Part shown: positions 14,001-64,000 of the stretch, one piece after another | How positions within the stretch are numbered: position 1 is the first letter of the stretch | How the letters are laid out: the number at the start of each line of letters is the position of its first letter | DNA from: Lytechinus pictus | Taxonomy: Eukaryota | Assembly: GCF_037042905.1 (NCBI RefSeq) | Contig: NC_087251.1 | Coordinates: 33,854,001-33,918,000, forward strand | Direction of reading: 5' to 3' | DNA: 64,000 bases | The notes under the pieces: model-generated | What the model saw: the letters and a program-made list of their open reading frames with translations, nothing else | Databases searched by the model: none | What the model was told of the DNA's origin: nothing | Made by a program: the position numbers and the translations under genes

Positions 14001-17000
14001 GCTGGAAGACAGGTGGACCTAAATCTGTCCTGAAGTTTCATGTGTCATGTTCTTATACAGATCTAGCCATTTTTGTTGCTCTACAGGTGCATGAATGTTC
14101 TTTGTGTAGAAAATTATCGGAGCCATTCAATGAGAGAACACATTTAACTTACCAGAAACCAAGTATTTCTCTGAAAGCATAACCTTAGTGATAGGATTGC
14201 GATGAACGGTGAAGGTCTGGAAGAGCTGAGGTCCTTGACCGACTGTTTCTGGGTGCTGGACGATGACCCGGACCTTGCCAGAGCTAGTTCCATATGCTAT
14301 CTCAATCCAGTTTCCACTCAAACCTACATAAAAAATATAAGTAAACGTCGTTGAATTGTTAATTTCATTCTTTTATTTGCAGAGGGTGAGATAGATCTGT
14401 TGACCCAACATCCATGTCTTCAAGCTGCACAATAATGGATGATTGAACAATGAACAAAACAAAACAAAACAAATGAGAATATTTCATGTTGGTTTTGTAA
14501 CGCACCATAAAAAACATGTTTCAAACATATAATTGATAAATCTATTTTATGAACTTTTGGAATTGAGATATGACTAACAAAGCTATCACCACTGAAAATT
14601 TATTTAATCTTGCTATCAATTAATTCCTGAAAATATTGAAACACTCTCCACTAATTTTCCCTCCATACATGCTCTTGGGAAAATCAGTAGTGAAAGTTCA
14701 ATACAATTTAATTTTCACACGTATGTTCTTTGCTATTTTATTCATTGGGTTTTTGAAGTGAAGGAAAACTTTTTAAAGCCAAAGCATTCAGAGGTTTTGA
14801 ACATGAAAGTATCGAACAAAGGACATGTTAAGTTAAGAGAATCAACGTCTTAAAATTGTCATTAACAAGTGAAAGACATGGATTGTGTAATTAATTTTCC
14901 CCAAAGATTTGGTTTTATCGAGAAGAGCGTCAGGTGCAAGCAAGCGTCATATTGATAGTGTGTACAAGGTAAAGTATATCATGACTTTGTTCATTGATAC
15001 TTGTGTTTGAAATTTTTTTTTTTGACAAGTATTGTTGTATCCCCAAAATAGTGCAATAATTATTGTTATATCTTCTTTTTCTTTCAGATCCACTGAGAGA
15101 AACGATGAAGATTTGAGGCTCGGTTCCAGTGCAATTGACAGAAGTGTAGAAACAAGAGACAGATTTCCATCTGCCATGAAACCTGGTTTGCCCAGTCGAA
15201 TATGAGCATCCGTAAAAGCCTTCTTTTGGTCCACTGTTTTATTTACTGTCATTAACTACCCAACAGAGACTCATTAAAAAAGTGATACAGCAGCTAGAAC
15301 ATCTTCTATTTGTAGATCTACTCAGAATCAATCATCTGCCACTATTGCCAGCTCTACATCTACTAAGTCAGTGAAGTGCTTGAATATCAGAGGATGTGCT
15401 TCTTGTAGCGATGTAAACATCGGCAAGTTTTTTCCCCCATCTTCTCAAATGTTTTTCTTGCTTTTTAATGAATTTGCATTTGAAAATGATATCAATATCG
15501 TATAAATGTCAGAAATTAAGTCGTATCCCATTTACATGATATAGGGCTAGGGCCACTTCCATTGACGAGTGGATACCATGCGCGACCATGAGATCTCAAA
15601 AAGCACCCTAAACACATATTTTCCATATTCTAACAATGCACCCCATAACAAGTATTGGTGTGTGAAACCCTACCCTTAACAAGTATTGGAAACAAAACGA
15701 TACTATTGGCAAATATTCCCTGAATTGAACCCCTAAACAAGTACAGCGATATTTCAATTGTTATATCACGGACGTCGGTCGTCGGTTTTACCTTTACCTA
15801 CATCATTGGGTTTAGTACAGCCCCACTTGCGCAAATCGTACTCTAAACACGTAGTGTTGACTCTTAGGGCAAAAACTACATCATTATTGACCTTTATAAA
15901 ACATTTTAGTCTTGATTTTTCTATACACTCGCAAATTTGACCCTAAACAAGTAGCTTTCCTATCGAAAATAGATACCCTTTTTTTCATTATTTTAGTGTT
16001 TTTGACACCCTTATTACGTTACGTACGTAACGTGCCCTATCTTGGAAAGACATCCCTTTTACATGTTTTTTGGGTCGCGCATGGTATCCACTCGTCAATG
16101 TAAGTGGCCCCCCCCCCCCCCCCCCCCCGGGCCTAAATCTTAAACATCTATCATAAGATAGTTGAATTTACATGTACATACATGTACACTAAGTCATAGA
16201 TACATGTCTGCACATTTACATGAATAACCTTTTTATTTATTATTTTCTCACTTTTTTGTTAAGCATCCCTTTTTCATAAAGGGGGCATATGGAACTCTAG
16301 CTGATAATATCATCAACTTTACAAGTCAAAATAGAGTCAGACTTTCCCTTGAGGAATGGTGAAGGAAACATGACTTACTGCTTTTTGGTGTCAGGTACAC
16401 ACTGAGAGCTGTGACGGCATCGTTGGCGGGGTCCTTGTATAACTCGGTAACCAGTAGATCCTTGTCTTTGATTCTCAATGGAAACTTTTGCATATCTTTA
16501 TTACGAAAACAAAACATGAAGCAATATAAGTTCAAAGCACAATCAATGTTTAACCAAGGACCTAGTCCTGATGAAATAAGAAAAATTATAGTACCCATTT
16601 CTATGAAATGCTAGTGTTGGTTGTAGAGGAAGACCATCTATTAATCAGTGCTAAAACTGTACAAGGAAAAGGGTGGCTCAGTCTCTCATCACCAATAGAA
16701 TCAACAAAATGGAGAAAAGGAAGACAGGACAAATTAGGGAGACATGGTGCAAATAATAGGTAGCTTTCTATCGCCAGACCGAACGTCAAGCTACTACGAG
16801 TGACGTCATATTTTGCCACTGCGCATGCCCGAAAGCTTGCTCTCACGCCGTCCCCTGATTCTGACAACGGGAGTTGGGGGAAATTTCCCTGATTCCACGT
16901 TGCGGTGAAAGCGACAACGTGAGTGCAATTTCTTCGATCTTTACTTGTCCAAACAATCGGATTAGGTTGGTTCATAAAATATTTTGTTGGGAGGGCTCTA

Positions 17001-26000: not shown

Positions 26001-29000
26001 TGTAATAACTGACATAAAACATGTTACATAGCAGCCCAGTGATTGAAAATTGGGCTCCCTGTGAATAAGAGAGTACATTCACTTCAACCCGAAAAATACT
26101 ATTTTCTGGGAACTATTTGCACAAACATTTCATTCACAAATAGAAAACAGTCTTTTAATATTGCTGGTAGTATACTGAAATTCATATTTTTCCTTTGCAT
26201 AATGTCCATAGAATTTATCATTTTAAGGGAATTATAATTTAGAGCATGAAGTAAAGTGCATCATTCAAGTTTAATTATGAAGGAGGAGAAAAGGAAAAGG
26301 AGAAGATGGGAAGAAGAAGATGATGACGATGATGAAGAAAAGGATAATAAACATGAGAAACAAAGGAAGATTGAGGAAGAGAAAGAGGAGAATGGGGGAG
26401 AGGGAGAAAACAAAAACCAAGAAGAAGGGGGAAGAGGAGCAGAAATGAATAAATGAATATGTTTAATCAAATGAATGTGTTTAAAAATTGAATATGTTTA
26501 ATCCAGTTATCTGGGACTACTTTCTTTTAATGGAAACTGTGTTCAGTAGTCTCCATTCTCAGGCTGATAATTTACAAACATTTTGACTGTAACCAAGTAA
26601 TCTTACCTAGAAAAAAATGAATCCGGAATCCAAGTCAAGGTCTGTCGAGATGTAGAGAACCTGTCAAAGACATAAAGAGATTCGATTCTATGGCATTTAT
26701 TTCTACAGATCACAACATTTAACATTTACACACAAAAAATGGAAACTAGTCACCAAACTTTTGGGAGATGAAAGAAATTACCTTAATTGCTGAAGCTGGT
26801 GATTTTAAAAGCTTGTGTTATTAAAATCCCTTTTCATGGAAATGTGATATCCTTTTGCAATTGTATGCTAAAATCACATATGCTGACACAAAACCTTTGT
26901 CTGCTGAAATAAGAATGGTAATACTTGGAATATTTTTTTTTTTTTTTCTCTTGATCTAAAGGATAAATGCTTGATTTTTTCTGGCAGTCAGTTTATGATG
27001 ACAGTTTTTCATCATACATGTATGCATTGGGGCAAAACGAAATTGATTTCTTTCAATTATTATTTTTTTTCTTTTCAAGAATAGAGGGCCTTACAACTTA
27101 TGCCAAGTAAAATAAAAGTTTTTCAGCATTCTGCTGAATACAAAAATAATCATCAAGATTATAATGAAAGACAAATCATAAACAAATTTTTAAAATCATT
27201 TTTAGAGTAATGTGCCTGACATTCAACATGGCAAACTTATTACTCAAGCCAGCACAGTCAATCACCAAAAACACACACAAAACATACTGTTATATACACG
27301 GGCACTATCACTCACCACATTAAAGTCCCAATTTCAACTCAAAAGTCCCCTTTAAAAAGTAAATTAAAATACAGATTCTGCGCCATATTTCCAGAGCACA
27401 CGGCAGCTTAGCTCAAATTTTAAAAGCAGGGTTATCGAAAAATGTGCTAAAAATTAAGAAATCTGTGGTTTTGTTCTAAGTTCACAATCTTTTTGGCAAA
27501 TTTAGGATCGTATCTTCAATCAAAAAAGAAAGAAACTGAAAAAATCTACATTGAATTTGCACAGAAATAAAGTTGACGACATGCTAGCTGCAGGCTTTCA
27601 TTCGACATGGGGTCCGAGTGTGATGTGAATGGCCGCTGCAACTTCTGGGTTGCATACATGTATATCACATGCGGTGTGGCGCAATTCAGCGGCGCTCGCA
27701 TGTTTTGACTTTTGAACAAGCGACGCGCTATGTCAAATGAAGGGCGGGGGCTGTCGCATCGTGGTTGCAAAACATGATTTTATGAAATATTAAGATAGGT
27801 GAAAATAAACATTGCAATTAAAATAGACAAATATATTCAACATTGATGCGAATTTCATTTTGTGAAAAGACATTTTAGACTTAACAAAAAATATTGGCTT
27901 TGCAGAAAAGCTAATAAAATATAGCATGCCAAATTGTGGGCAGGTTATCATGAATAATTTTAGGATTTTGCATAGACTGATCTATACAGAGAATGTTACC
28001 AATTTAGGCAATAAATTTAGTTTAAAAGTAACGTTTTAATCACCCAAGGGTTCATTACATGCCGCCGCGCACAGAAAATTCAAGCCATAGAATTAGAAGT
28101 CGTGTGTTGTGGACCCAAGAAGTGAGATCCCAGCACGCGCGACCCACTAGTTAGAAATCCACTGCCAAACGCGGTTCGTGGTGCGAGGTTAGTATACTAA
28201 TACTAACCTCGCAATACGTGTGAGTGCGTTTTAATAGCCCCCGGAAAAAATGGATTGTCTGGCGGCAAGACAATAAATTAATTATTTTCAGGGGCTACTT
28301 TTAACATACTGTAGCGTAATGAGTTATACCTTTAAGATGTATTTCATAGTTTAATCGTAGAGGGCGATATTTTAGTTGTGATATGCTTTGCGATTATTGG
28401 AGAAGTACGTGAGTTCGCTGGGAGCTGCGGTGGCGTACGGTTGTAAGATGTAAGCTCCGAATAAATCAAGTTGAACTGTATACTGAATATCTCCCAAGTT
28501 GCTTCATTTGCATGATTTAGGGTGAGTGAGCGGGTGATTCGGTGTATTTCAGAGGAGCGAGAGAGTGTACCACGTTGCACAATATACTTTTGTGAACGAA
28601 CCTGCCCAAAAAGAGATATAAAAGTGAGGAGAAGCGTGGACCGGGTTCTAGAGACTGCGAGACGGCAGAACGCTACCCCGACAGAGCTCGGTTACGCCAC
28701 ACTGGTGGCCGCGGTGGGATTGAACAACGTGGTATTGGAAGCTTAGACAACTTAGGCGCCTGTATTACAGGGAGCGCCACGTATATCGCCTATGAAGATT
28801 GCCAGGAGAGGCAAGAAGAGAGCGCCCTGGGTGTACGTGTGCGGCGGAGATAGTGCCTACACACGTTGGTGAATAGCGCCCTGGGTGTGTGTGGCGGAGA
28901 TAGTGCCTACACACGTTGGTGAATAGCGCCCTGGGTGTGTGGCGGAGATAGTGCCTACACACGTTGGTGGATAGCGCCCTGAGTGTGTGTGGCGGAGGTA

Positions 29001-31633
29001 GCTCCTACACACGTTGGTGAATAGCGCCCTGGATGTGTGTGGCGGAGATAGTGCCTACACACGTTGGTGAATAGCGCCCTGGGTGTGTGTGGCGGAGATA
29101 GTGCCTACACACGTTGGTGAATAGCGCCCTGGGTGTGTGTGGCGGAGATAGTGCCTACACACGTTGGTGAATAGCGCCCTGGGTGTGTGTGGCGGAGATA
29201 GTGCCTACACCGTTGGTGAATAGCGCTCTGGATGTGTGTGGCGGAGATAGTGCCTACACACGTTGGTGAATAGCGCCCCGTGTGGCGGAGATAGTGCCTA
29301 CACACGTTGGTGAATAGCGCCCTGGGTGTGTGTGGCGGAGATAGTGCCTACACACGTTGGTGAATAGCGCCCTGGGTGTGTGTGGCGGAGATAGTGCCTA
29401 CACACGTTGGTGAATGGCGCCCTGGATGTGTGTGGCGGAGATAGTGCCTACACACGTTGGTGAATAGCGCCCTGGATGTGTGTGGCGGAGATAGTGCCTA
29501 CACACGTTGGTGAATAGCGCCCTGGGTGTGTGTGGCGGAGATAGTGCCTACACACGTTGGTGAATGGCGCCTTGGGTATTTGTGGCGGAGATAGCGCCTA
29601 CACACGTTGGTGAATGGCGCCTTGGGTGTGTGTGGCGGAGATATATAGCGCCTAAATACACGTTGGTGAATGGAGCCTTGGGTGTGTGTGGCGGAGATAG
29701 CGCCTATACACGTGGGTGAATAGCGCCTATTGAGTCGGTGTGTAGACGACAGCGTGGATAGCGCCTATACATGTAAATGTATAGCGCCTACGACGTGTGG
29801 CTATGAAGAATGGATCTGAAATTCCTTGCAGGATAAGTGCAGCGTGGAGATGGGGATCTCTGAACGTCGAAGAGAAGTACTTGTTGGATATGCAGATACT
29901 AGCAACGAGGGAACTGGAGCTGTCCTATGTTGGGAAGGAGCAAGTCATATCCTATGCTAGTGGGGTACTGCATTCAGAAAGCAGAGAAAAAAACTACTAT
30001 GGGGCTCAAAAGGAGTCATGGGCCATGGTAGTATTTCGGAGCTGCAACAGAACTTCTATGGGCGGAGATCAGGACGGATCATCGGGCACTTGGTTGGATC
30101 TTTGCAGAGGCAAGGGTGGTTGCCGTGGAACTTGACATCAGCAATGAGCAGATACCAACAGAAAGAACCTTCGATCAGGTAGATCTTGGAAGCAGAGCAT
30201 CAGTCAGTCGACCGGCCCGATTGGTCAACGGTGGCTTCAAAGTCTAGTGTGGAGAAGTCCTATTGGAGGATGCACAGCTGGAGATGAAGCAAGACATACT
30301 CTACAGGAAGTAGGAGTGTGACCAAGGTCGGAATGTAACCTGGCATGTGATGTTGTTCTTCAGATAGATAGTTCGAAGGAATTGCGTTGGATGCACATCC
30401 GCTGATTGTTACGACAGGGTAACGCCTTGGCCTCCAAAGAAGTCTTTATAGAGAGAGATCGAGATGATGAAAAGTAGTTCTAGACATGCGCCTTGAAGAA
30501 ACCCCCCAAGAAGGAATCGTCTAGCACTATAATAGAAATCCGCAGAATAGATATTGGACAGAACTTTCGCTATATATTACTTTGTGCCAGAAACAGTCAG
30601 ACTCTGACGCATTTGAAATTTGTATTCAACATGTTGTTTTATGCCTTGATGTATTCTTTATATTTTTTGCTTCCATGTTTCCTTTTCCTATTTTCTAACC
30701 TTTCTTATGTAATTCTCTTGACATTTTCCTGATCTCAATGCTACTCTGTTTGCTCTTTCTATCTATTTCTGTATATAGATTGTTTTGGTTGTTAATGTAA
30801 GAACGGTACTTTATGTACTATGCCAATGTATATACCTGTATACTTTTAACGATGTTTTAATGTTTTATTTTCTTCTTTGGAAGAGCGAGATAACATTTAA
30901 AGAAATTTATTGTTATGCTTTGTTGTTAATATACCTGGTCCGAGGACAGCCCAGACTTGGGGAGGGGCTGTGTAGCGTAATGAGTTATACCTTTAAGATG
31001 TATTTCATAGTTTAATCGTAGAGGGCGATATTTTAGTTGTGATATGCTTTGCGATTATTGGAGAAGTACGTGAGTTCGCTGGGAGCTGCGGTGGCGTACG
31101 GTTGTAAGATGTAAGCTCCGAATAAATCAAGTTGAACTGTATACTGAATATCTCCCAAGTTGCTTCATTTGCATGATTTAGGAAATTAGGGTGAGTGAGC
31201 GGGTGATTCGGTGTATTTCAGAGGAGCGAGAGAGTGTACCACGTTGCACAATATACTTTTGTGAACGAACCTGCCCAAAAAGAGATATAAAAGTGAGAAG
31301 CGTGGACCGGGTTCTAGAGACTGCGAGACGGCAGAACGCTACCCCGACAGAGCTCGGTTACGCCACAATACTATTGCCTAAAAATCGTGAACATTCTCTG
31401 TAAGAGTCTATGCAACATCCTAAAATTATTCATGATAACCTGCCCAAAATTTTGCATGTTAATTGGCCCACACTGACATTCACTTCACTTGTGTTGGGAT
31501 TTTATTTAACTTCAACTTAAACTTAACGACATTTATACATACATGTGGGACCGAAGCAAAAATAAGGAGATACTCACCGCGTACCACCAACATTCAATTT
31601 GATGAGATCACCCGAACCCAACATCCCATTCAT
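4705..31633 (-). CDS. KCTD3: KCTD3/SHKBP1-family BTB/POZ + WD40 protein, complete 14-exon CDS (~697 aa): join of 31578-31633, 26607-26660, 25926-25971, 25167-25299, 24504-24584, 23325-23489, 22263-22547, 19668-19871, 16379-16495, 14153-14323, 7540-7695, 6120-6216, 5387-5577, 4705-5042
   Basis: All introns are GT-AG, phases are consistent, and the total of 2094 nt is divisible by 3. Recognisable family peptides: [145 protein letters not shown]. Probably a co-ortholog of vertebrate KCTD3 and SHKBP1. Confidence 0.95.
5387..5577 (-). CDS. KCTD3: KCTD3-like exon 13 ([48 protein letters not shown]...)
   Basis: ORF 5379..5618; TAG acceptor, GTAAGT donor. Confidence 0.95.
6120..6216 (-). CDS. KCTD3: KCTD3-like exon 12 ([33 protein letters not shown])
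   Basis: Manual translation; AAG acceptor, GTAAGA donor. Confidence 0.93.
6398..7056. mobile_element. MITE with ~30-bp TIRs and TA TSD
   Basis: TA|TCGTCGGCGGTCATCCGAACCGTCGTATCA ... TGATACGACGGTTCGGATGAACGCCGACGA|TA. Confidence 0.85.
7540..7695 (-). CDS. KCTD3: KCTD3-like exon 11 ([38 protein letters not shown]...AGNDI)
   Basis: Manual translation; conserved [19 protein letters not shown]. Confidence 0.95.
8560..10220 (+). repeat. Higher-order tandem repeat: ~375-bp units built partly from 42-bp subunits
   Basis: GAAAGAGCACTATAAATTGTGAAACAAGGAGAACT recurs at ~8643, 8932, 9306, 9681 and 10057; subunit CAAGGCGGGAATCATAGGGTGCCACG... Confidence 0.9.
14153..14323 (-). CDS. KCTD3: KCTD3-like exon 10 ([16 protein letters not shown]...SEKYLVS)
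   Basis: ORF 14127..14321; TAG acceptor, GTAAGT donor. Confidence 0.95.
15550..16131. mobile_element. MITE with ~38-bp TIRs and a poly-C end
   Basis: GGGCCACTTCCATTGACGAGTGGATACCATGCGCGACC / GGTCGCGCATGGTATCCACTCGTCAATGTAAGTGGCCC; internal ACCCTAAACAAGTA-like repeats. Confidence 0.85.
16379..16495 (-). CDS. KCTD3: KCTD3-like exon 9 ([39 protein letters not shown])
   Basis: ORF 16326..16598; AAG acceptor, GTAAGT donor. Confidence 0.95.
16762..17589. mobile_element. CpG-rich non-autonomous element with imperfect ~35-bp TIRs
   Basis: AGCTTTCTATCGCCAGACCGAACGTCAAGCTACTAC / GTAGTAGCTAACGTTCGGTGTGCGGGTAGAAAGCT. Confidence 0.7.
17790..18930. mobile_element. Foldback-like element with long imperfect arms around an internal degenerate tandem array; right arm interrupted by a SINE
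   Basis: 17942-17999 pairs with 18448-18508; 17862-17897 with 18550-18583; ~17811-17856 with ~18851-18893. Confidence 0.65.
18592..18845 (+). mobile_element. tRNA-derived SINE
   Basis: A box TGGTCCAGTGG and B box GAGTTCAAATCC in a tRNA-like head (18593-18666) with a degenerate anticodon arm. Confidence 0.65.
19355..19630 (+). mobile_element. Degenerate tRNA-derived SINE with L2-like tail
   Basis: GGGTCGTGGGATCAAACCCCGGCC B-box-like motif; 3' GCGCTATAAAAGA...ATCATTATTA tail. Confidence 0.55.
19668..19871 (-). CDS. KCTD3: KCTD3-like exon 8 ([31 protein letters not shown]...GSIYYI)
   Basis: ORF 19474..19887; TAG acceptor, GTGAG donor. Confidence 0.95.
20530..21085. repeat. Two-copy ~295-bp direct duplication
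   Basis: ATGCT.TTTAGCCTTTATTCAGATATCACATT...AATCCAAACATAAAG at ~20531 and ~20825. Confidence 0.85.
21520..21720 (-). mobile_element. 3' fragment of an L1/Tx1-clade non-LTR retrotransposon ORF2
   Basis: [21 protein letters not shown]...[22 protein letters not shown] resembles the KY.IY...IE...A....KL..H..KW C-terminus of invertebrate L1/Tx1 ORF2. Confidence 0.6.
22263..22547 (-). CDS. KCTD3: KCTD3-like exon 7 ([34 protein letters not shown]...)
   Basis: ORF 22225..22575; motif GHHNWI..AYAHF..CYRIKES. Confidence 0.95.
23325..23489 (-). CDS. KCTD3: KCTD3-like exon 6, poorly conserved linker ([54 protein letters not shown])
   Basis: Open frame, symmetrical phase 1-1, CAG acceptor and GTAAGG donor. 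The acceptor position is less certain. Confidence 0.7.
23790..24090 (-). mobile_element. 3' end of an L2/CR1-group LINE
   Basis: Minus strand [40 protein letters not shown] (typical ORF2 C-terminus), then GCGCTATATAAG and (ATT)n tail. Confidence 0.85.
24288..24497. repeat. (CAT/CAC)n microsatellite adjacent to the exon 5 donor
   Basis: Read directly; explains the poly-D/H/M/S ORFs. Confidence 0.97.
24504..24584 (-). CDS. KCTD3: KCTD3-like exon 5 ([27 protein letters not shown])
   Basis: Matches the KCTD3 post-BTB motif; CAG acceptor, GTAAGT donor. Confidence 0.92.
25167..25299 (-). CDS. KCTD3: KCTD3-like exon 4 ([44 protein letters not shown])
   Basis: BTB/T1 motifs FIDRDP, ILNYLR and EAEFYG; splice sites present. 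Confidence 0.95.
25926..25971 (-). CDS. KCTD3: KCTD3-like exon 3 ([15 protein letters not shown])
   Basis: TAG acceptor, GTAAG donor, BTB sequence. Confidence 0.93.
26607..26660 (-). CDS. KCTD3: KCTD3-like exon 2 ([17 protein letters not shown])
   Basis: CAG acceptor, GTAAGA donor, BTB sequence. Confidence 0.93.
   Translation of the reverse strand, partial: VLYISTDLDLDSGFIFF
28703..28720 (+). promoter_or_regulatory. Primer binding site complementary to a tRNA-Leu 3' end
   Basis: TGGTGGCCGCGGTGGGAT lies 1 nt after the 5' LTR. The complement of the metazoan tRNA-Leu(AAG/TAG) 3' end, from memory, is TGGTGGCAGCGGTGGGAT (1 mismatch). Confidence 0.8.
28823..29790 (+). repeat. Tandem array of ~18 copies of a 50-bp unit inside the LTR element
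   Basis: Unit GGCGGAGATAGTGCCTACACACGTTGGTGAATAGCGCCCTGGGTGTGTGT; degenerates toward the 3' end. Confidence 0.97.
29870..30135 (+). pseudogene. Frameshifted Gypsy pol RNase H remnant
   Basis: Read across frames: [15 protein letters not shown] (cf. DAS..G.GAVL), [23 protein letters not shown] (cf. VI.YASR.L...EKNY....KE.LA.V), [10 protein letters not shown] (cf. TDH.AL.WL). Confidence 0.8.
30959..30967 (+). promoter_or_regulatory. Polypurine tract
   Basis: GGGGAGGGG just upstream of the 3' LTR. Confidence 0.75.
31578..31633 (-). CDS. KCTD3: KCTD3-like coding exon 1 ([19 protein letters not shown])
   Basis: GCAGCCATG start context, BTB LNVGG motif, GTGAGT donor. Confidence 0.9.
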
Positions 31634-31834
31634 GGCTGCTCGATCTGGCCCGGGAATGTCGAAGTTTCGTCCCGAATTGCCTTTTATCTTAAACTTATTT
31701 TTGTTTTGTACACTAATTACGTCAGTTTCTAATGTGATTCATAATGACAAATTAAAACAACACTTGTCTTGTTTGGGCGTGAATCACTAACGTAGATGGC
31801 AGCAATCAGCTAGCAGAGTTGACTGCAGGAACAA

Positions 31835-32151
31835 CTGGGGCCGATTGCACGAAAGGGTCTTTCCAAGGACCGTCTTTCGTGTCGCCCATCTTTTATGATG
31901 CGCTGTAAGCGGGGTGTTTCTGAAATTTATGATAAACAAATAAAATTCGTAAGCTAGCTTTTAAATCAAATTTTATACAATTTCATGAGATATCACATCA
32001 TTTTATAAGAAAATATTTTTGTTTATTCAACGGACAAATAAAATATATTTGCAGATAATCTATTTGAAATGCGTTTCACATGGCGTATCATAAAAGATGG
32101 GCGACACGAAAGACGGTCCTTGCAAAGACCCTTTCGTGCAATCGGCCCCTG
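31835..32151. mobile_element. MITE with ~70-bp TIRs, ~200 bp upstream of the KCTD3 ATG
   Basis: CTGGGGCCGATTGCACGAAAGGGTCTTT...CCCATCTTTTATGAT vs its reverse complement at ~32083-32151. Confidence 0.88.
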
Positions 32152-32787
32152 TATTTTTCCAGTAGATGCGGTATAAAGGTATAAAGAGTTCAGAGTAGAG
32201 TAGTTCAACTCTGGCAAAGTTGTGAAAAGTTGCGTTATAAATGTAAAAAACAACAACAAAAGAAAATGGATAACAAATGTTTTTTTTTTTAATGAGAGGT
32301 CCATAGAGGTCCGACATGCCGTAGATAGCCCCTTAAGGAGCAAAATTTCTATTTGAAAAAATAGCTGCAAGTGAGCAAAAATGAAATTTTTTTAAATTCA
32401 AATATAGTTTGTGATAGATTTTTACATAATCAAATAATATTCCGAAACTCGTATCTCAGTCCCTTTTCCTTTTCTTTCCGTTTTTCCTGAAACTTTGTGG
32501 ATGTCCTTGGGCCTTGCTGGCCCATCTGTAGGCCATTGGTGATAGAATAAGTTGATTGATACTAAACCGAATGTGTATAGATTCACGTGAAAATAGATAA
32601 AATTGTAAATGGGCTAATTGGTGATAAGATCAAAATGGTTAGTAGATGAACTGGTTGTAAATGATAATTATATAGGATTAGAATGAGAACCTAGAAGACA
32701 AAATGGAGTAGTCAAATGCAATTTTCCATGCTGATTCTTCTCAATGACTGCTAAGAAATCAGGTATCGATTGATTTGGTATAATCAA

Positions 32788-37866: not shown

Positions 37867-38182
37867 ATGGGAAGTGCAGGACGCCTCATCCTCTTTGCTC
37901 TCCTCTACATTCTGTACATTTGTCTCGGGGCCGGCGTCTTCATGGCCCTTGAGAAGCCGTACGAGCAGGAACTGGCCAGCGACATCATCCGCAGGAGAGA
38001 CGGGTTCCTCGATGCCCACACCGAGTGCATGACTGTCGAGGAGCTCGACCAGTTCGTCAACGACATCGAGGAGGCGTTCCAGTTCGGCGTCACCTACGCG
38101 GTCGCCGTCAACTCAACGGCCAACACCATGTGGGATTTTGGAGGATCGTTTTTCTTTACCACAACTCTTTTGACAACCATAG
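37867..38182 (+). CDS. Two-pore-domain K+ channel (K2P/KCNK) coding exon 1: M1, cap domain, pore 1 up to TTIG
   Basis: MGSAGRLILFALLYILYICLGAGVFMALEKPYEQ...HTEC...WDFGGSFFFTTTLLTTIG; GTGAG donor in the conserved phase-1 pore-1 intron. Confidence 0.95.
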
Positions 38183-40133
38183 GTGAGTTTAAAACATGTC
38201 ATTGCTTCATCTACTAAAAAGGTAGAAAACTTGGGTCTTGCAATAGTGTTTATGTTATTTATTACAGTTGTCAGAAAAGGGAAAGTGACAAATAATATCG
38301 GGGAAATTGATTATCAATCGTAATATTGAAGGTGAAGCTTTCATCTTCGGCACTGTCCCCTCCCTAACTTTCAAAGCGTTCCGCGAACACAGACGACCTG
38401 ATGATTATCTTTCTTTTCATTAAAAACTGAAAAACACGGAATCTATATGGGTTCCGTTGTTAATATGCGTGATTTTATTTCATAAAAGAATACTGCACAA
38501 CTCTAAAGTGGGAATATCTTGTAATAGGGTAACAGTACTCGACTGACAGCTGACTGCTGATGCGTGATACTTTCAACAATAATTCACGACAATTCAATAT
38601 TTGGGTGATAATAATGAAGCATGAGTGAGGGAAGGGCCAAAAGGGAGTGCATTATAGATTCGTAAATAGTTATTGCCTGTAGCCGGTGTGTAAAGTTTTC
38701 TGCACTTTGAACATGTTGAACCGAAATGAATAATACCAACCATTCTTACCCTGACTGTGTGGTTATGATAATAATATGCAACATTTGTTTAGCGCTTAAT
38801 ACAAAATTCTAAGCACTGCATACTATTACCCCGGCTGGTAGTGAAAAACGAAACATTTCCTAAATCAGAGAACTGTGATCAAATTGAACGAATTAAAACT
38901 AACTTTTCTAGACTACTTGAACTAAGTAAATTCCTGTAACCACATACATTTTCCGCCAAATTACTATTTACTTTGTAATTTTGCTTCATAGATGTCAAAG
39001 GCCAATTCTACCCAATATAAGTTTGATCTGAATAAACTGAGAAATATTTTCTAATAGCATTGATTTTTAATCAATTCAAAGACCCACCTGTTTAATGTCT
39101 AGATATCAGTTGTGGGTTGCTCTAAATGGAGGTGCACATCTTAATTGCCTTTTGTTTCTTTAAATTTTGTTTTAAATTCATTAAGACTACTTTTTATTTT
39201 CACATGAGGAAATTTAATTGATAAACAGAAAACTGAGCCGTTAGAAACTGTATTAAGCGCCTACAAATGTTATTATTTTTATTATTATCAATATTATTAT
39301 CATCATTATTATTACTAATCAAAGTCATATGTAAAACAAGACATTTACTTAAATATTTTCACCTCGTACATTGCTGATATGCAGCTGGAAGAGCCGATGA
39401 AAATACACACTCATTCTTGTTTTCATTTTTTAACTATTTAGCATTTCAGATATTTACATTTTGTGTATATTTTTATAAAAAAAAGATCTGATCTAACCTG
39501 ATCCAATAGGATTTATAGTATCATCTACATTATTTGAGTAAAATGAAAATACCTTAATTCCATCTTGATGCAAATTCTTTCTGGATTAGAACATTATTAA
39601 TCGATCCCTTCTGAATAAGTTTGTTTTAAACGTGTGTCATTGTCATCAAAAACATAAAACTTCAAAGAGCAGGGAAATGCACGATATTTTTACCAAGCGC
39701 ATTTTAGTTTGGTATAAGATGAGAAATGTAATAACATGAAAAGTTTCCATTCTTACTTACATTAATTACATTCAATGTTCTACTTAGATGCATTTACTTG
39801 AATGTAAAAGGCGTAAGTAAGTTTGTTTAACAATCAATATAATTGCCAATATATTTTTCAGCTCTGGAAACATAATAAGTAGAAATTGTGAATTTCAAAC
39901 AGCGTCACTTAAGCATGTTAAGAATGCATTATTACCCGTTCTCATGATGGAAATTAAGTCAATCTACATGTTTATTCAATAAATTAAAAGTAGTTGTTTA
40001 CAAAAGTACTTTCGTAATGTATAAAACCTTTACTAACACACGTGCAAAAGAATAATGCGAATAGGCTCTCTACTTAATTACTTGCCTTACACGATGCACT
40101 TTTCGTGCTATAGGGAACTGAAATCGAGATATA

Positions 40134-47808: not shown

Positions 47809-47813
47809 ATCCA

Positions 47814-47844
<31 letters not shown>

Positions 47845-48053
47845 CTAAATACCCCCTCTCTCTCTTTCTCTCTCTCTCTCACACATTCTCTTAAAAATGT
47901 TGGGCAACACACTGTCCACACAACTATTGGTTAAAATTTTATCCAACTCTAGCATGTCTGGATAGTTTTCACCCAAAGCACACATTATTGGTTTAAAACT
48001 ACCTAAAGGTTTTCTATTGTTGTGTAGACAGTAAGTTGCCCAACATTTTGAAG

Positions 48054-48084
<31 letters not shown>

Positions 48085-48125
48085 GGGGTATTTAGGTGTG
48101 TGTATGGGTGTGCGTGAATGTGGAT
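47809..48125. repeat. Inverted repeat comprising microsatellite flanks plus a central small MITE
   Basis: ATCCACATTCAC(AC)nCTAAATACCCCCTCTC...CTCTTAAAAATGTTGGGCAAC mirrored by GTTGCCCAACATTTTGAAGAG...GAGAGGGGGTATTTAGGTGTG...GTGAATGTGGAT. Confidence 0.8.
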
Positions 48126-48304
48126 GTGCCGTGGCCGAGTGGTTTAAGGCGCCTGGCTATAAATGGAAAGTCCAGGGTTCGATCCCCGGCCGTGGCACCT
48201 ATGCCCGTGAGCAAGGCATTTAATCTCTTTTATCCTGCTTTCAAATAAATGGAAATGCTATATGCATTATTGGTAACTAGGTGTGCACTTGTTTTAAAAA
48301 AAAA
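48126..48304 (+). mobile_element. tRNA-derived SINE, same family as 32788
   Basis: A box TGGCCGAGTGG, B box GGTTCGATCC, shared body and poly-A. Confidence 0.88.
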
Positions 48305-52098: not shown

Positions 52099-52257
52099 GT
52101 TACGGGCATGTGTCACCGCTGACAGTCAAAGGTCAACTCTTCTGTCTATTTTTTGCTCTGTTTGGTATTCCTTTTACGTTCTTCTTTCTCGGTACAATCA
52201 CCTACGCCGTCAGCAAACCTTCGCAGATACTCCTTGACTTCCTAACTGAAAAATTCG
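52099..52257 (+). CDS. K2P channel coding exon 2: (G)YGHVSPLTVKGQLFCLFFALFGIPFT (M2)
   Basis: CAG acceptor completes GYG; P.T..G..FC..FA..GIP motif; GTAAG donor. Confidence 0.95.
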
Positions 52258-52619
52258 GTAAGCCTTCTCAACCCACAGTTCTATTTTATTTGGAATTACT
52301 GACATCTGCCACCTTTCCATTTATTGATATTGATTGTTTACTCAATATTTTTTATTCTCATTCTGTAAAGATACATGATCGTGTTTTAAACTATTTGATC
52401 AATAGTGATTTATAATTTGATCAATAAAGTTGGAGAAAAAAATATTTGGTCATTTCATAAAGTTAACTTAACTTGATCCCAGACCTAGCTTTTAACATTC
52501 CATTAACTGAGATAATGACAAACAGTAAGTACATTATAAAATATAAGTTCATTGTTCATCTGAATCTTTAAGTTTGAACTCAATGTCAATGTTGACACAC
52601 ACACACAAACACACACATA

Positions 52620-54026
52620 CAGTGCGTATAAAAAAAAAGAGGAAAAAATTTGAAAAGTATATAATTTTTTTTTCAAATTATGATGTCTATATTTTGGCGT
52701 TAATAGGTGCTCTGAAGTCTTATCTTTCAAATGACATTAAAAGAAATTAGTTTAGTTCATGCTTGAGCGAACACGGAATGTTTTTGTCTGGGGTTAAAAA
52801 GGAGGCTTGCGCCAAAATGGCATAAAATGATGAATATGATTATCGGACTTCTTGCTAATCAGCAGACTTCCTCTTAATCTTTTCATTATCTTTGCCATAA
52901 TTTTCAAATTATGCGGTCAAAATTTATTTTAAAATCTATTTATTTGCTTAAATTGTTCTGTTGTTCTTTCTTTTTTTTATGTTCTCTTTTAGCTTTGAAT
53001 ATTCCTTCTTTAAGAAAAAACAATTTTTTCAACTGAAGTATGGGAGAGCGTGTTTTTTTTCCAAATCCTTTCATTGTGTGCTACAAAGGTATGGTGCCTT
53101 TTGAACAGTGCCATACAGATGGGCGGGGGCTCGGGGCCCCCTTCTCCTCCCGGTACAGGAATAGTTCCAAAATGTTACCAAGTTTTATTTATATAACAGG
53201 TGGTATAATTAAAAAAATCATGACCAAGAAAAAAAGTGGAAAGGAAAGATAGAAAGTAAAATATGATGTTATTTTCTGATTACGGTATGTCAAAATCTGT
53301 TATTGTAATAAGAAAGTGGGAATATTTGTGTGCTCGCTTCGCTCACAACTTTTCAATACATTTCACCCGATCTGCCATATCTAGCTCTTTCAAAATTGAC
53401 TCAATACACCATTAAAAGACATGAATCCCTTCCTGCTTGTCCTGCCCAGCATGTAATTAAACTTGGTCAAGGAATCAATAACCCCTTGAGGAATGGATTC
53501 ATGAGTTTTAAAGGTACCATAACATAATTTGTTTTACATAATAAAAGGATTTGAATAATTACAAGTTTTCCCAATTAATAATGCAAATCTTCTTGCTTGG
53601 GTTGACAGAACTCACAGAAGGTCTTCTTTTCTTACTTATGAAGGAAAATTTAAAGGTAAAAGAAGTTTGAATGAAAAAAAAACAAAATAATTCAAGGAAA
53701 TAAATGAATTTGTAAATAAAATTTGACTGCATAATTTGAAAATTATGGCACAGATAAAGAAAAGTTTAAGAGGAAGTCTGCTGACTAGCAAGAAGTCTGA
53801 TCATCATATTACTCATATTCTGCCATTCTGGCGCAAGCCTCTTTTTGAACCCCCGACAAACTTAAACGTCCCGTGTTCGCTCAAGCATGAAAAACATTTA
53901 TTTTTTTAAAATTGCATTTAAAAGATAAGATTTCAGAGCATCTATTAACATCAAAATATAAATATAATAATTTGAAACATTTTTTATAGACTTTTCAAAA
54001 CTGTCCCGTTTTTTTTATACGCACTG
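52620..54026. mobile_element. Tc1/mariner-type non-autonomous element with ~300-bp imperfect TIRs and TA TSD
   Basis: TA|CAGTGCGTATAAAAAAA ... TTTTTTATACGCACTG|TA; arms share CATGCTTGAGCGAACACGG, GAGGCTTGCGCCA and CAGCAGACTTCCTCTTAA. Confidence 0.88.
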
Positions 54027-54048
54027 TATATATATATATATAAATATT

Positions 54049-54462
54049 GGTTTATTCCAATTCGTCTAATGCCAATTCGTCAAATTGCCAACTCGACTAC
54101 TACCATTTTGTCTATCATCAGTTCGTCTACTCACCACATGGTCTACTTTCATTTAGTCTAATGCCATTCCGTCTAATTACCAGTTGGTCAAATAGCCATT
54201 TAGTCCATATACCATTTGGTGTAAGTAAGCTAAAGTGTTAATTGTGTGAATAAAAAAGATAATGGGTATTAGACCAACTGGTTATTAGACGAAATGGTAA
54301 TAGAAGAAATGGTGATCAGACGAAGTGATGATTGGACCAAATGGTTATTGGACCAAATTGGTTGATAGACGAAATGTTGATGGACGGAATGGCATTAGAC
54401 TAAATGAAGGTAGACCATGTGGTGAGTGGGCGAGTTGGCAGTGGACGAATCGGCAATTTACC
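54049..54462. mobile_element. Palindromic MITE built of ~15-bp degenerate units; related fragments at ~32540-32730 and ~33020-33180
   Basis: GGTTTATTCCAATTCGTCTAATGCCAA... / ...TTGGCAGTGGACGAATCGGCAATTTACC; TCACCACATGGTCTAC.TTCATTTAGTCTAATGCCATTCCGTC mirrored. Confidence 0.8.
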
Positions 54463-57700: not shown

Positions 57701-57955
57701 ATCATAAAGGATCGGGTGCCGGCGTTCGGGTGTGTCATCTTTTCATCCTCTTCGTCCTCATCCTCGCCCTATTCTTCCTCATCCCTGCCGCCATTTTTAC
57801 CACTTTAGAAAAGAGATGGAACTACTTTGAAAGTTTTTACTTCATCTTCGTGTCCCTCACCACCGTGGGCCTGGGCGACTTTGTTCCCGCCACCGCTTTC
57901 CGTGAAGGGAGCGTCTACGAGAGCACACGATCGATCTACTTTATAAGTGTATCAC
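57701..57955 (+). CDS. K2P channel coding exon 3: M3 and pore 2 (WNYFESFYFIFVSLTTVGLGDFVP)
   Basis: Polypyrimidine tract and CAG acceptor, GTAAGT donor, phase consistent. The M4/C-terminal exon was not found and probably lies beyond 64000. Confidence 0.93.
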
Positions 57956-58011
57956 GTAAGTATAGCCGCCCCAATTTTTTCTGTTATAGTAATTTGGTGG
58001 ATTTTTTATTG

Positions 58012-58225
58012 GTATTATCATTAATATAATAATAATAATGTTAATAATAATTGTAATTATCATTATTATCATTGTTATTATTATCATTATTATTATTATC
58101 ATTATTAATAATATAATTGTTATTATTATTAATATTATCATTATTATTATTATCATTGTTATTATCATTATTATCATTATTACTTTTGTTATAGTCATTA
58201 CTTTTATTATGATCAATATTATTGT
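58012..58225. repeat. (ATT/ATC)n low-complexity tract
   Basis: Read directly; explains the poly-Ile ORFs. Confidence 0.95.
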
Positions 58226-59192
58226 ATTATATATTTTCAAAAAAAGATGTATGATTAATGTAGGGCATTTATGATTCAAGGAACATTTTTTTCTGCGTTT
58301 GTGTCTGTAGCGTGGAATAAAGTGTTGTCAAGTTGCATCCTTCCCCTACTAATTAGACTACCTGTATTCTTATGAAATATAATACATGTACTATAAAACA
58401 ACAAGATAGAAACATGATATAAACTTGACTTAGTTGTATTCACTTTCGTGATCATGATTTCCATCTAGAAAAGAAAATGGTAAAACTCAGGTAGTAAGTA
58501 TTTATTACACGGACATATGTATAGAAGATGTTGCAAACTTGCTTTAAAAACAACATTGAACATGGTTAAACTCAGTTTTAACAACGCATTGCTTTATTCA
58601 ATATTCATTCAGTATTCACGTGTTACCATATAGTTCTGAAGAATACGGGGAAGAATACAAAGCCATCTTCAAATTTAACCCTTTGACTATTGAATTATGT
58701 AATTCCTATTGGCTTTGTACAGGGACCACCTGATTCCATAGCCAATGAGTTAAGGTAGCTACTGTAAGTCACTACATCAAACGTCACAGATCTTGAATAA
58801 AGATATTAATAGTGTGTGAATCACCGAGTGATCTGAGCGCATCCCCACAATTCTTAATTAACATCCCACGCAACTTGGCCCATAATAAATTGTTAAATAG
58901 CAAGGACTTTGACATGAAAAATGGGGAGTGGGAGGTAGCAGGTCTTGGTATTACTTTGTAAGTTGTGCCAAATTTGATGTGAAGCCAAATTGGGTATGGT
59001 TACAAAGGGACTCTCACACGTTCAACGCTTTAGAAAGCATACGCCTCCGTGTACATGATAAATCGTTCTAACATTTAATATTTCTTATCGTATTAAGAAT
59101 AATAATCCCAATACTGAAACATTTTTCTTAAATAGACATTCTTGGTTTGAAGAGTTCAATTCGTGTCAGAAAGAATTAATTGTTGCAAGCAA

Positions 59193-59325
59193 GGTGCCGT
59201 GGCCGAGTAACCAAGTTGCCTGACGACACCATGGTAGTCCTGGGTTCGATACTCGGCGTGGCCCCTGAGCAAGACTTTTTATCTCCATTGCTGTTTTATC
59301 CCGCATCAAAATGTAAAAGAAAAAT
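59193..59325 (+). mobile_element. Diverged copy of the same SINE family
   Basis: GGTGCCGTGGCCGAGT...GGGTTCGATACTCGGCGTGGCCCCTGAGCAAG...TTTTATCC. Confidence 0.65.
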
Positions 59326-59344
59326 CATTAACGTGTGCATTTGT

Positions 59345-59658
59345 CATGGGCGGAAATCCCAGGGGGACAGGGGGGGGGGGGACGTGTCACCCTACTCAAA
59401 ATAGTAGGGGGGACACAATATCAAACGTTCCCCCTACTATTTCTGGTCTTTTATGATGGTAAGAAATTCATCATTCAAAATCAAAATAAAACATGTATTT
59501 TAGGACTAGATGACCTTACTTTTGGAACCTTTTTTTTTCCAAATTTATTTTCGTCCAAATGACCTGAAATTTGGGGTGATAAACCGTTTTTTTTTTTGCT
59601 TGTCAGAATTTCCAGCCCCTTGTCCCCCCCTACCTTTTGGGAGAGATTTCCGCCCCTG
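59345..59658. mobile_element. hAT-type MITE with a perfect 8-bp TSD
   Basis: GCATTTGT|CATGGGCGGAAATC...GATTTCCGCCCCTG|GCATTTGT. Confidence 0.9.
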
Positions 59659-60838
59659 GCATTTGTTATTTTGTTATTTAACTTACCTTACCCCCCCCCC
59701 ATGAAATGTACCGCATAGCTAATTCTCGTATGTCCTTATTATAAATTCTGCATGACTTTTGACCACGTTTTTAGAAGCAGGTCATAATTCTCTTCAAATT
59801 TTCCATCTCATTATATCTTTTGGTCCAGCCACTGTGTTTGAAGTGCACTTGATATAGCGTTACAATGACGACCACTCATTAGGCTTCAGAACCTATAAGG
59901 GATTACCTATTCTCGTCATTAGGCAATTCATATTGCTGCTCGCCTATAATTATGAAATCATCAGTGTGCTATTTGAAGATTTTATGTCGCTTGGAACTTA
60001 TTTGTGAGAGCGCGACTGTCTAATGCAACAACAACAACAACAACTACTACTACTACTACTACTACTACTGCTACTTCGACTACTACGACTACTACTTCTA
60101 CTACTACTACTACTACTACTTATTCTTTCCCCACGTGCCTTTATACGTAGCTAATCAGTTAAATGTAAAGAGTCCATCTGTTTCAAATCCTTATTCACCA
60201 AAGAGAGGAGACCTTTTCTTAGATTCATAAAATGTAAAATAATTTTCTGTTAAATATAACGCACAACCCATTGTCACCGCTTTAACCCGCACCACTACAC
60301 TACCGCTACTAACCACCTAACGCTGCCACTCATCAGTAGCGAAATGAGCCAAACAAAATTGAGGAGGCCAGAGATTGCGTGTGGAGCAAAGAATCTATAA
60401 AGCTGCGAACGAGCGAAGCGAGTAGGCAACATTTTTTATCATTTTTATATAAAAATCCAATTTGGTTTTAGATTTTGACAAAATATTTATTAAATATGAA
60501 ATTTTCAAATTCAAATTTGCTTTATTTCATTTTCAACAGAACACAGAACAAAATAACATGGTCGTAAATAATTACAATGACATTTGCAAATGAAACTTAT
60601 ACAAACAATATACATTGAGGTAGGATGATATTTTCCCATAAATAAAACAAATTATTATTTAAAAGCAAATTATCATTCACATTATCAAAATATGAGAAAA
60701 TGGAGGGATCCACTAAAAAGCAAATGTTTGTAGTGTGTGGACCCCTATTTAACCCCTTTCATTTCGTCTTAACCATTCCTCCTTCTCTTCTTGGTCGTGA
60801 AAACTTTGAGGGGTCCATCACGCCAAGTCCCCCATCTG

Positions 60839-60896
<58 letters not shown>

Positions 60897-60917
60897 ATAC
60901 CACCACTACTACTACTA

Positions 60918-60962
<45 letters not shown>

Positions 60963-60968
60963 TTACTA
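60839..60968. repeat. (CTA)n microsatellite; a second (CAA)n(CTA)n tract lies at 60026-60120
   Basis: Read directly. Confidence 0.97.
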
Positions 60969-60994
60969 CAACGGCTACATGCTACATCGGAATG

Positions 60995-61280
60995 ACGAAG
61001 CGCTTTACTATATATATTATCACCCCGGTCATCGATTTCTGGCATTCCTGCACACAATGTATACATTTCCTCCACTCCCTGGGGAGCACTCCAAAAAGAG
61101 TTCCAATACTAATTGCTAGGCATACTATAGACTTTCGCATCCTACCGGGTACAAAATTCAAACTGGGTGGAGAGTGGCAAAGAGTGGATTGACGCCTTGC
61201 AAAAGGACGCAAGACCACAGTGGGATTCGAACACACGACGCTTTGTTTTCGAGTCGAGAATCGCTACACCACGACGCTTC
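60995..61280 (-). mobile_element. Degenerate tRNA-derived SINE on the minus strand
   Basis: Plus strand GGGATTCGAACAC equals minus-strand GTGTTCGAATCCC (B box); body with CTCCCTGGGGAG palindrome, also seen at ~3728. Confidence 0.6.
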
Positions 61281-62417
61281 TATATAATTCTTCTTCTACA
61301 AAACTACTACTACTTCTACCATCACCACTACTACTACGATTAATCCTACAACTTCTACTATCTCTGCTTGTACTAAAACAAACATCACCACCACTATACC
61401 ATCACCACCCTAACCATTTTTCCTTGTTTGTTTTGATTGTCGATGTTAACTTGTCACGCCTCTCGGTCTATGGATGTTCCCATGCTGAGATGATAACCCA
61501 TGCATATTCAAAATGAAAAAAAAAGAAGAAAGCGACAGCCACTCATCCGAAAAGGTATACCAAAAATAAAACAGGACAGAACATTCATTTCCTCATCACA
61601 TGATTATAATGCACCTTCACATTTGAACCCGGTGTTTTGAACTGAACACTTTCATTTTAAATAAGACCCATGATATTAGAGGTTTGATATTTTTATCAGT
61701 CATGTGCCATCGAACATTATCACATGTTATTAAGTATCTAATTGACCATTGTTATGCTGGAGATATATGGGTGTAAGCCTTCCCTGAGCTAACCGCATCG
61801 TTGATATTACGGAAATGATAAAAATGTGTCGACTGAAAGACCATTTCATAATCATCCTATATTACCACTACATCTTCAGTAAATCTTGAAATGGGGGGGG
61901 GGGGGTGGCGACGAACAATTTCGTTACCCTCCCCTATACCACTGCACAGCTTTAAGTTCATAAAAAAGCTATATTAATTTCTCCATGTTTGTTTTGAAGA
62001 ACCATGATGGTGAAAGTCTGCTGTTTCTGAATTTAGTATACACAAAACCATCACATCATCATTATCTGCATTGTATTCATAATATAATATAAAACCATGT
62101 GTTGTATTTGGAAATAATATTTGTTGTAATCACATGATGACACTCTAGCCCTGTCATTAAGGTCTTAACCTGACATCGTGATTGATATATAAAAGAAGCG
62201 TTTACCTTTATTTAACAAATAATCGAAAATATAAGGATTGATGTTTAAAAAAATGTGTTTTTCAAATTTACACATGAAATGAATGCATCATAACATATAC
62301 ATATATATATATATATATATAAATGTGATCAATCTTGGCGATGTACGTGTACGGGTCTCCTTCATAATTATATTTGAGATCAATTGTATGGAGAGGGCCG
62401 TAGCAAGGTCAATACCC

Positions 62418-62463
62418 GTCTTCTTCAAGCTTTCGGGCACATGCCCTTCATCAGGATCTAAAC
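62418..62463 (-). ncRNA. Minimal type I hammerhead ribozyme motif (mirror copy)
   Basis: Plus strand reads GTCTTCTTCAAGCTTTCGGGCACATGCCCTTCATCAGGATCTAAAC, the reverse complement of the 62627-62672 motif. Confidence 0.65.
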
Positions 62464-62626
62464 CAATATATAAAATACAAAATATAGGCCTACTAATAAC
62501 AATGGTAAATACAATGCAATACAATATATAATTATAGATTATTATTTTTGGACTATAATTATATATTGTATTGCATTGTATTTACCATTGTTACTAGTAG
62601 GCCTATATTTTGTATTTTATATATTG

Positions 62627-62672
62627 GTTTAGATCCTGATGAAGGGCATGTGCCCGAAAGCTTGAAGAAGAC
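62627..62672 (+). ncRNA. Minimal type I hammerhead ribozyme motif
   Basis: CTGATGA (62636-62642), A, GGGC-ATGT-GCCC stem II, GAAA, palindromic AAGCTT stem III; putative cleavage after U62663; stem I short with a 3x3 internal loop. Confidence 0.65.
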
Positions 62673-62713
62673 GGGTATTGACCTTGCTACGGCCCTCTCC
62701 ATACAATTGATCT

Positions 62714-62749
<36 letters not shown>

Positions 62750-64000
62750 GTGCAAGGGTGTGTGTGTGTGTGTGTGAGAGAGAGTGCTAGAGAGATAGTG
62801 TTTTGTGTCTCTAATGCTTTATAAACAAAAAGTACTGATTGCATAAACTGAGAGGCCCCGTAAATAATGTAAAAGTAATCGTTCACATTTTAGAAACTTA
62901 AGTCAAGTAATTTCATTGCGCTTTGAAAACAGTTAATGAAACAGTATAACAACGTTAAACAACGCACGCACACAGGCCTGTGGATGCATTATAGGTCTAC
63001 AACAGTGAGGTGTATCATGTACATGAATGGAAATCAGAACAGTAAATACAGAATCTATGCGCTATGGGATTAGTGCATCTTGAAAGTGTATTACAAAACC
63101 ATTAAATCTTAATTGGTATAATGGACACGATCTCTCGGGTGTTTACACAGGGCATATATTAGTGCAAGGTATGGCCTTGGTGCCGCTTTCGACCAGTGTC
63201 GTGGTTGTTCCTGTATTTGCCCATCTATTACAACGCTTAGCTAATTACTGCTTTTCTTCATTCATGGAGGTGATTGGATTCCAAGGTCACGTGACGTGAT
63301 TTTTGTAATGGCGTATAGCCCCACATGTTGCTATCTTGATTAGATGACGAAGTGTTACTACATAGGCAATATCTTGTTACTTTACCCTCGGGTTTCATCT
63401 GTTATCCATGTTTTTTCTCATTTGCTGCCTTTCATTTTCTTCCGCCCCCCCAAAAAAAATAATTGCAAAAGAATCATTGGAGCATTTTCTTTCTAGTATC
63501 TCCAATCTTCTGCCTATTGACACTTACAAAAAAATAATGGTGTCTGCCATGATACACTTCAAGTTTTTATGGCGCAGTAATACATACCGGTTACATACCG
63601 CCTACGATGACCGTACAGCGAGTCGAAAACAGCCGTTTGTAACATTTTTGTACCAGCTTCCTGTATGTGGTTCGTATATAAATCCATTAAACGACTGTTT
63701 TCGACTCATAGTGCGTCACATGCAAACAGTACAATAGGGGAAATGTGAAGCCTTTGTAATTTGTGTGTCAATTTTATACATAGACATTGTTGAATGCTGG
63801 ATTGTACTAGGTTAAACATGTATGTAGGCCTATAGCAATTTTCTATCACCACTTGACATCGGAAAGAGTTCTTGAGATTGGCAGAAAAGCGGAATTAATT
63901 CTCAAAGTCAGATAACCTTCCATGGGATATGATTTCTGCTGGTGGTTGGTTTTGCTCCTCTTTTTCAAATCTGTAGAAAAGCGAGACATTCATTAATGCA

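Follow-up and report, generated by a model that had tools for sequence, protein, structure and literature searches.

The locus at 62321–62746 of the window, by which we mean the whole 64-kb stretch of Lytechinus pictus DNA that was analysed, comprises two 5′-truncated copies of one dispersed repeat, and we propose that they were joined by two-ended priming in a single insertion of a Penelope-like element (PLE), a reading to which we assign a probability of about 0.6. Whether it arose by this route or by fold-back, the locus is very probably a by-product of PLE insertion. The minus strand carries a tailed copy of 217 nt and the plus strand a tail-less one of 184 nt, and the 5′ ends of the two meet. 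Hammerhead ribozyme motifs are present in both copies as passengers of the pseudo-LTR (pLTR), and the locus is a new member of a published PLE layout, with nothing new in kind.

The left arm (62369–62537, minus strand) and the right arm (62553–62721, plus strand, sense to the host K2P gene) are each 169 nt long and are reverse complements with a single mismatch, A62496 on the left opposite C62594 on the right, which confirms the initial annotation of two 169-bp arms differing by one base. Between them lies a 15-nt spacer (62538–62552), which forms the loop of the hairpin and, judging from a loose contig end in a public run, is native to the right copy (plus strand), extending it in the 5′ direction to its 184 nt. 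The locus is asymmetric, with 62321–62368 lying on the left side alone as a 48-bp 3′ tail (minus strand) that has no counterpart in the right copy and that brings the left copy to its 217 nt. Tracts of (TA)n on either side, at 62295–62320 and 62722–62746, are the left and right remnants of the likely target microsatellite. When folded, 62321–62746 has a free energy of −308.7 kcal/mol, which lies at z −37 relative to 100 shuffles. The annotation had taken this entire span as the palindrome; the arms and the two inverted copies are real, but 62321–62368 is present on one side only, and the annotation overlooked both the tail on one side and where the spacer comes from, the two traits by which the structure can be recognised.

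The dispersed nature of the repeat is seen in contigs of two public runs (X1 and X2), which we placed on 62321–62580 at 85% likeness, with the placement extending 30 letters past the stretch. Fourteen contigs fitted, of which 12 pieces were listed; most contigs of the runs have a depth of 2–9, and the runs, containing 4% of the words of the left flank, may come from another individual or a sister species. Among the matches listed, five X1 contigs stop at 62323/62324 and continue into unlike flanks, one X2 contig stops at 62369 and runs into TA, matching the tail-less end of the right copy, and at the 5′ side the contigs stop at several different places. Two X1 contigs (again among the matches listed) carry the tail contiguous with the arm, with at least 31 letters on each side, which ruled out the reading of 62321–62368 as a fragment of a diverged element. 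The X2 loose end behind 62531, compared by eye with the reverse complement of the spacer, agrees with it at 10 of the 11 letters that can be compared, the other orientation giving 4 of 11, and a second loose end fits more loosely, also by eye. An independent opposite-strand junction (62506/62375) is present in one X1 contig (record 3, depth 2.9), where the tail is on the short copy, the arms are very unequal (at least 100 nt and 52 nt), and nine letters at the junction fit both sides, eight of the nine being identical in the window. Separately, a stop at 62386, which lies 17 nt within the tail-less end, occurs in one contig of each run, and the flank is the same in both; it may mark a third 3′ terminus, or else a deletion that arose later at a single locus.

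These independent copies bear on the possibility that the palindrome is an artefact of assembly or of reads, namely a fold-back chimera. No contig of the two runs spans the centre, and inverted PLE structures are reported to trouble assemblies (PMC8557442); the depth across the centre (62537–62580) is zero in both runs, which at their partial coverage proves nothing either way. An artefact is nevertheless most improbable, as the arms stop at the two natural 3′ ends of the family without running into the flanks, the flanks differ, and the asymmetries, with the tail on one side and the native spacer on the other, match those of independent copies. At the sole mismatch, moreover, the left arm agrees with the four listed contigs that cover the position, which makes the base of the right arm likely to be the newer one.

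For the origin of the structure by two-ended priming, we envisage that the endonuclease of the element would cut the TA tract on both strands. The left cut end would prime reverse transcription from an outer site, so that the tail is included, while the right cut end would prime from an inner site, 48 nt upstream, and would give no tail; both cDNAs would stop within 15 nt of each other and would then be end-joined, a dead-end of insertion. Such a course of events would account for a tail and a spacer found on opposite sides, as well as for the second junction having arms of unequal length. A purified lizard PLE is reported to cut and extend both target strands, and to have two adjacent reverse transcription start sites that bound the tail (PMC11167929). 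No microhomology was established at the centre junction, and arms of nearly the same length are just as consistent with fold-back.

In fold-back, an antisense strand (RNA or cDNA) would have primed itself near the 5′ end of the pLTR, leaving the spacer as the loop, and the tail would then have been lost from one side as the intermediate was resolved. The minus strand reads as antisense copy, native spacer, and sense copy with tail, which is the topology expected of this route, and the arms are near-equal and have three uncommon states in common. G62673 is found in both arms and in none of four covering contigs, A62666 in both arms and in one of four (each among the matches listed), and the 5′ region of both arms is 13 nt shorter than in the two loose ends shown. 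States common to the arms are expected if both derive from one template or from one subfamily, and they may mark a subfamily and not this locus. Each arm also has a self-complementary 10-mer at its 5′ end, self-priming on an antisense template has been proposed for head-to-head PLE junctions (PMC3846280), and the tail has been ascribed to resolution by the endonuclease (PMC8557442). Against this stand the extra clipping step that fold-back needs, because a target-primed cDNA without the tail offers no template for the tail of the opposite arm, the poor pairing of the spacer end with the base of the loop (three weak pairs in the minimum free energy structure), and the very unequal arms of the other junction. 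We therefore regard fold-back as possible, though doubtful, and two-ended priming as the preferred reading.

Because a link to an open reading frame is missing, the assignment to PLEs is founded on non-coding hallmarks. The family has dispersed 5′-truncated copies with fixed 3′ ends (five at 62323/62324 and one at 62369, among the matches listed), a tail at one end only, an adjacent inverted 5′-truncated copy, both here and in one independent contig, and a microsatellite target, with (TA)n on both sides of this locus and one other copy ending in TA. A target-site duplication is unreadable within (TA)n, and such targets are described as hiding the duplications of PLEs (PMC8557442; PMC3846280). 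The published PLE unit has an inverted 5′-truncated copy and a tail of 30–40 bp that is often one-sided (PMC8557442), and minimal hammerheads in the pLTRs of PLEs, including opposite-strand pairs, were described in 2014 (Cervera and De la Pena, PMC4209133). The consensus fit of the motifs, the contigs and the (TA)n tracts support the earlier proposal of a PLE-type hammerhead in inverted pLTR-like copies at a microsatellite target.

In the coding sequence of the window, no reverse transcriptase or GIY-YIG domain was found among 135 open reading frames of at least 70 amino acids, low-complexity frames having been excluded beforehand. A 46-residue frame through the motif and the tail had no credible relative in protein searches; its only match, P0004 (E 5e-4), was rejected as repetitive unrelated sequence. 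To our knowledge, no enzyme is known for the repeat family of 62321–62721. On the minus strand (62365–62321), an ATG close to the start of the tail begins a frame of 15 codons that reaches the TA tract; no protein match was found for this frame, and a change in one X1 contig removes the ATG. The pLTR and tail can contain the first codons of a PLE open reading frame (PMC3846280). The literature searched, outside which most subscription papers lie, yielded no study of PLE hammerheads in sea urchins.

We also considered a non-autonomous palindromic unit, foldback-like or retrozyme-like, that would move as a whole with its ribozymes back to back. The locus is compact and near-perfect, no parent open reading frame was found in the window, and non-autonomous derivatives of pLTRs have been reported (bioRxiv 10.64898/2026.07.22.740005). 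Even so, this is very unlikely: none of the 14 contigs, at their partial coverage, includes the palindrome centre and the sole inverted junction has other breakpoints, copies stop at several different 5′ places among the matches listed, and the 64-kb window contains no second copy beyond the locus itself. Retrozymes, furthermore, are arrays of tandem units that run head to tail and each bear a motif, and are defined by at least two such units with same-strand hammerheads, whereas the locus has one motif per strand.

Other repeats in the window include older imperfect palindromes at 31834–32152, 47812–48128 and 54058–54406 and an inverted pair at 52617–53018 and 53627–54029 (67–80% alike), which are MITE- or foldback-like; none of these contains a minimal hammerhead. 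A direct repeat pair of ∼400 bp (28310–28701 and 30971–31367, 97% alike) flanks a tandem array with a 50-bp period and a GC-richer stretch in an LTR-like layout, and the open reading frames of this pair gave no Pfam match. Weak BLAST matches at 16826, 26265 and 54795 were discarded, as they fall within the background of 250 tiles.

A closer examination of the ribozyme motifs shows that the core of each conforms to the published consensus for minimal type I hammerheads. The plus-strand motif (62627–62672, core 62636–62663) has C3 at 62636, an extra A at 62643, a stem II of 4 bp (62644–62647 with 62652–62655) closed by a 4-nt loop, GAAA at 62656–62659, and then a G-C pair, U16.1 and U17, with the predicted cleavage site after U62663. 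The 15.2/16.2 pair (G62660/C62661) is palindromic and without loop 3, and helix I consists of 2 bp, a 3 × 3 purine loop and 4 bp, the same weak stem I that had been described at the outset. Its mirror in the left copy (62418–62463, minus strand) begins at 62454, with the predicted site after 62427. The core CUGANGA-H, the helix II of at least 4 bp that begins with G10.1-C11.1, and GAAA-N-N-U-H all agree with the consensus (PMC4209133). A descriptor of the minimal hammerhead, which was designed after the motif and the published consensus had been seen, matched exactly twice in the window on both strands, at these two motifs, and once in 300 dinucleotide shuffles of the window searched in the same way. 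Descriptor and consensus together bear out the initial annotation of a minimal type I hammerhead with palindromic stem III on both strands.

The Rfam search that had been proposed alongside this annotation gave no hammerhead at the gathering score, nor was there one among 38 matches up to E 10; the miRNA models in the top rows are generic hairpin matches below their gathering scores and were set aside. Exact and degenerate scans for the motif returned nothing in metagenome contigs and nothing in viral contigs. A U at 62666 would pair with A62633 and so provide a third pair in helix I; the locus has A62666, and the pairing letter is found in three of four relatives among the matches listed. In the published alignment, the consensus helix I is 3 bp, the Schistosoma mansoni families have 4–5 bp, and one case of 2 bp is included (PMC4209133). 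Co-folding of two short copies gave pairing between loops II and not the dimer fold, and is uninformative for the dimer. An X1 contig with a loose end behind 62407 matches the arm over its final 38 letters alone, beyond which a diverged hammerhead-like sequence continues in register without the palindromic 15.2/16.2 pair; this contig is likely to represent a related subfamily.

The locus lies downstream of three exons of a potassium channel gene. Exon 1 matches P0001 (337 residues) at 100%, a protein that its source names a KCNK1-like potassium channel of the sea urchin Lytechinus pictus and that carries Ion_trans_2 domains. By protein mapping, the exons in the window are at 37867–38184, ∼52099–52256 and 57701–57955 (plus strand), the third ending in a phase-1 donor at 57956. 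Residues 244–337 had no credible match in the window among the matches listed, so that the last exon would lie beyond it and the palindrome, lying ∼4.4 kb downstream of the donor of exon 3 with the next exon at least 1.3 kb further on, would be in the last K2P intron, which supports the intronic position first suggested. Immediately upstream of the plus-strand hammerhead, a U-rich AG (62632–62633) is a possible acceptor; a join from K2P exon 3 to this site would keep the reading frame and extend it to a stop at 62790. It was rejected as a notable site, since 16 of 47 comparable YAG sites in 57990–63990 are equally pyrimidine-rich. In Penelope of Drosophila virilis, an intron is reported to end at the 5′ side of helix I (PMC4209133). 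A search for runs of RNA containing the left flank gave none among the matches listed (two runs, share 0.04).

Once transcribed as part of the host pre-mRNA, the two arms are predicted to pair into a long hairpin in which the single sense motif is concealed. Equilibrium folding, as distinct from kinetic simulation, gave a probability of ∼1e-16 for the local stem II in all six plus-strand and all three minus-strand transcript lengths, in support of the earlier argument that the antisense arm is transcribed first and masks the ribozyme. Masking follows automatically from the geometry of the common head-to-head joining. A 169-bp duplex in pre-mRNA is a plausible putative substrate for Dicer or ADAR. 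The right copy alone is predicted to form stem II with a probability of 0.985 when transcribed to 62675 and of 0.04 when transcribed to 62721, and, by this folding and by analogy with related motifs, the sense motif would probably not cleave even without the hairpin.

With one motif in the transcript of each strand, no dimer can form in cis. A single minimal hammerhead of S. mansoni showed no detectable cleavage (PMC4209133), dimers are described as having low activity only (PMC4209133; review PMC6765202), and the hammerhead of the lizard PLE is reported to cleave only with the protein of its element, its cleavage being dispensable for insertion (PMC11167929). The proposal that masking protects the host pre-mRNA from cleavage is left unsupported by the single motif per transcript, the lack of cleavage by the S. 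mansoni monomer, a helix I that is weaker here than in three of four relatives among the matches listed, and the predicted loss of stem II in the fully transcribed right copy.

A device retained by the host would go further, with the antisense arm kept because it guards the K2P pre-mRNA against being cleaved or mis-spliced, or because the hairpin gives rise to regulatory small RNAs. Masking is predicted on both strands, the possible acceptor at 62632/62633 is in frame with exon 3, and retrozymes are reported to be under-represented in Xenopus introns, where active ribozymes may be selected against (bioRxiv 10.64898/2026.07.22.740005). Such a role is nonetheless highly improbable: each transcript holds one motif, the S. 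mansoni monomer tested was inactive (PMC4209133), helix I is without the third pair found in three of four relatives among the matches listed, a single copy is predicted to misfold anyway, the acceptor is unremarkable among its neighbours, and the high identity of the arms is explained by recent insertion. No study of antisense masking of intronic hammerheads was found in the literature searched, outside which most subscription papers lie. We predict that the ribozymes are silent, and see no sign that they serve the host gene.

As it stands, the locus means little beyond one more short PLE insertion in a published layout. Its value is as a clean specimen for tracing the origin of the inverted 5′ copies of PLEs, because the tail, the spacer and the common variants assign each base to one of the two copies. 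Its importance would grow were palindromes of this type shown to supply silencing RNA regularly, or introns shown to favour them. A broader conjecture, which we consider very unlikely, is that head-to-head by-products of PLEs quench themselves, with the antisense arm leading in a transcript of either strand, and are tolerated in introns, where hairpins transcribed by the host would feed small-RNA silencing or A-to-I editing directed against the parent family. Were this so, introns would tolerate head-to-head pairs where lone sense copies would be purged. Transcribed from the K2P promoter, this locus would act as a built-in source of silencing, and its two ends would record in vivo how a single template was copied from each of the two reverse transcription start sites.

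Among known systems, the described unit of endonuclease-bearing (EN+) PLEs (PMC8557442; Pen2a_Av, PMC3846280) is alike in its head-to-head 5′-truncated copies, the tail at one end, the (TA)n target, the hammerhead near the 3′ end, and the absence of a readable duplication. Unlike that unit, no open reading frame lies between the repeats here and both copies are ∼200 nt, and the tail is 48 bp against the 30–40 bp reported (PMC8557442). Metazoan PLE minimal hammerheads, as presented in PMC4209133, share with the locus CUGANGA followed by one extra base, G10.1-C11.1, GAAA-N-N-U-H, the palindromic 15.2/16.2 pair without loop 3, and a U-rich 5′ flank. Opposite-strand pairs are 100–700 bp apart in S. 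mansoni, compared with ∼180 bp here; the locus differs in having a helix II of 4 bp and a proximal helix I of only 2 bp, where the consensus shows 3, and the motif sequence is unlike the two Strongylocentrotus purpuratus examples in the supplement of that paper. The animal non-LTR retrozymes described in bioRxiv 10.64898/2026.07.22.740005 are similarly non-coding, with a type I hammerhead and a proposed pLTR origin, but they have at least two same-strand head-to-tail motifs where the locus has one inverted pair, and, unlike them, the locus cannot release unit-length RNA. In the Poseidon PLE of Anolis (PAc; Frangieh et al. 2024, PMC11167929) the open reading frame is reported to begin at stem II, whereas here the two ATGs of the motif close within a few codons and only the tail ATG, missing in one contig, stays open. 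PAc is alike, as reported there, in its two adjacent 3′ ends that bound the tail and in its AT-rich target, and its extension of both target strands would give inverted copies such as those joined at this locus.
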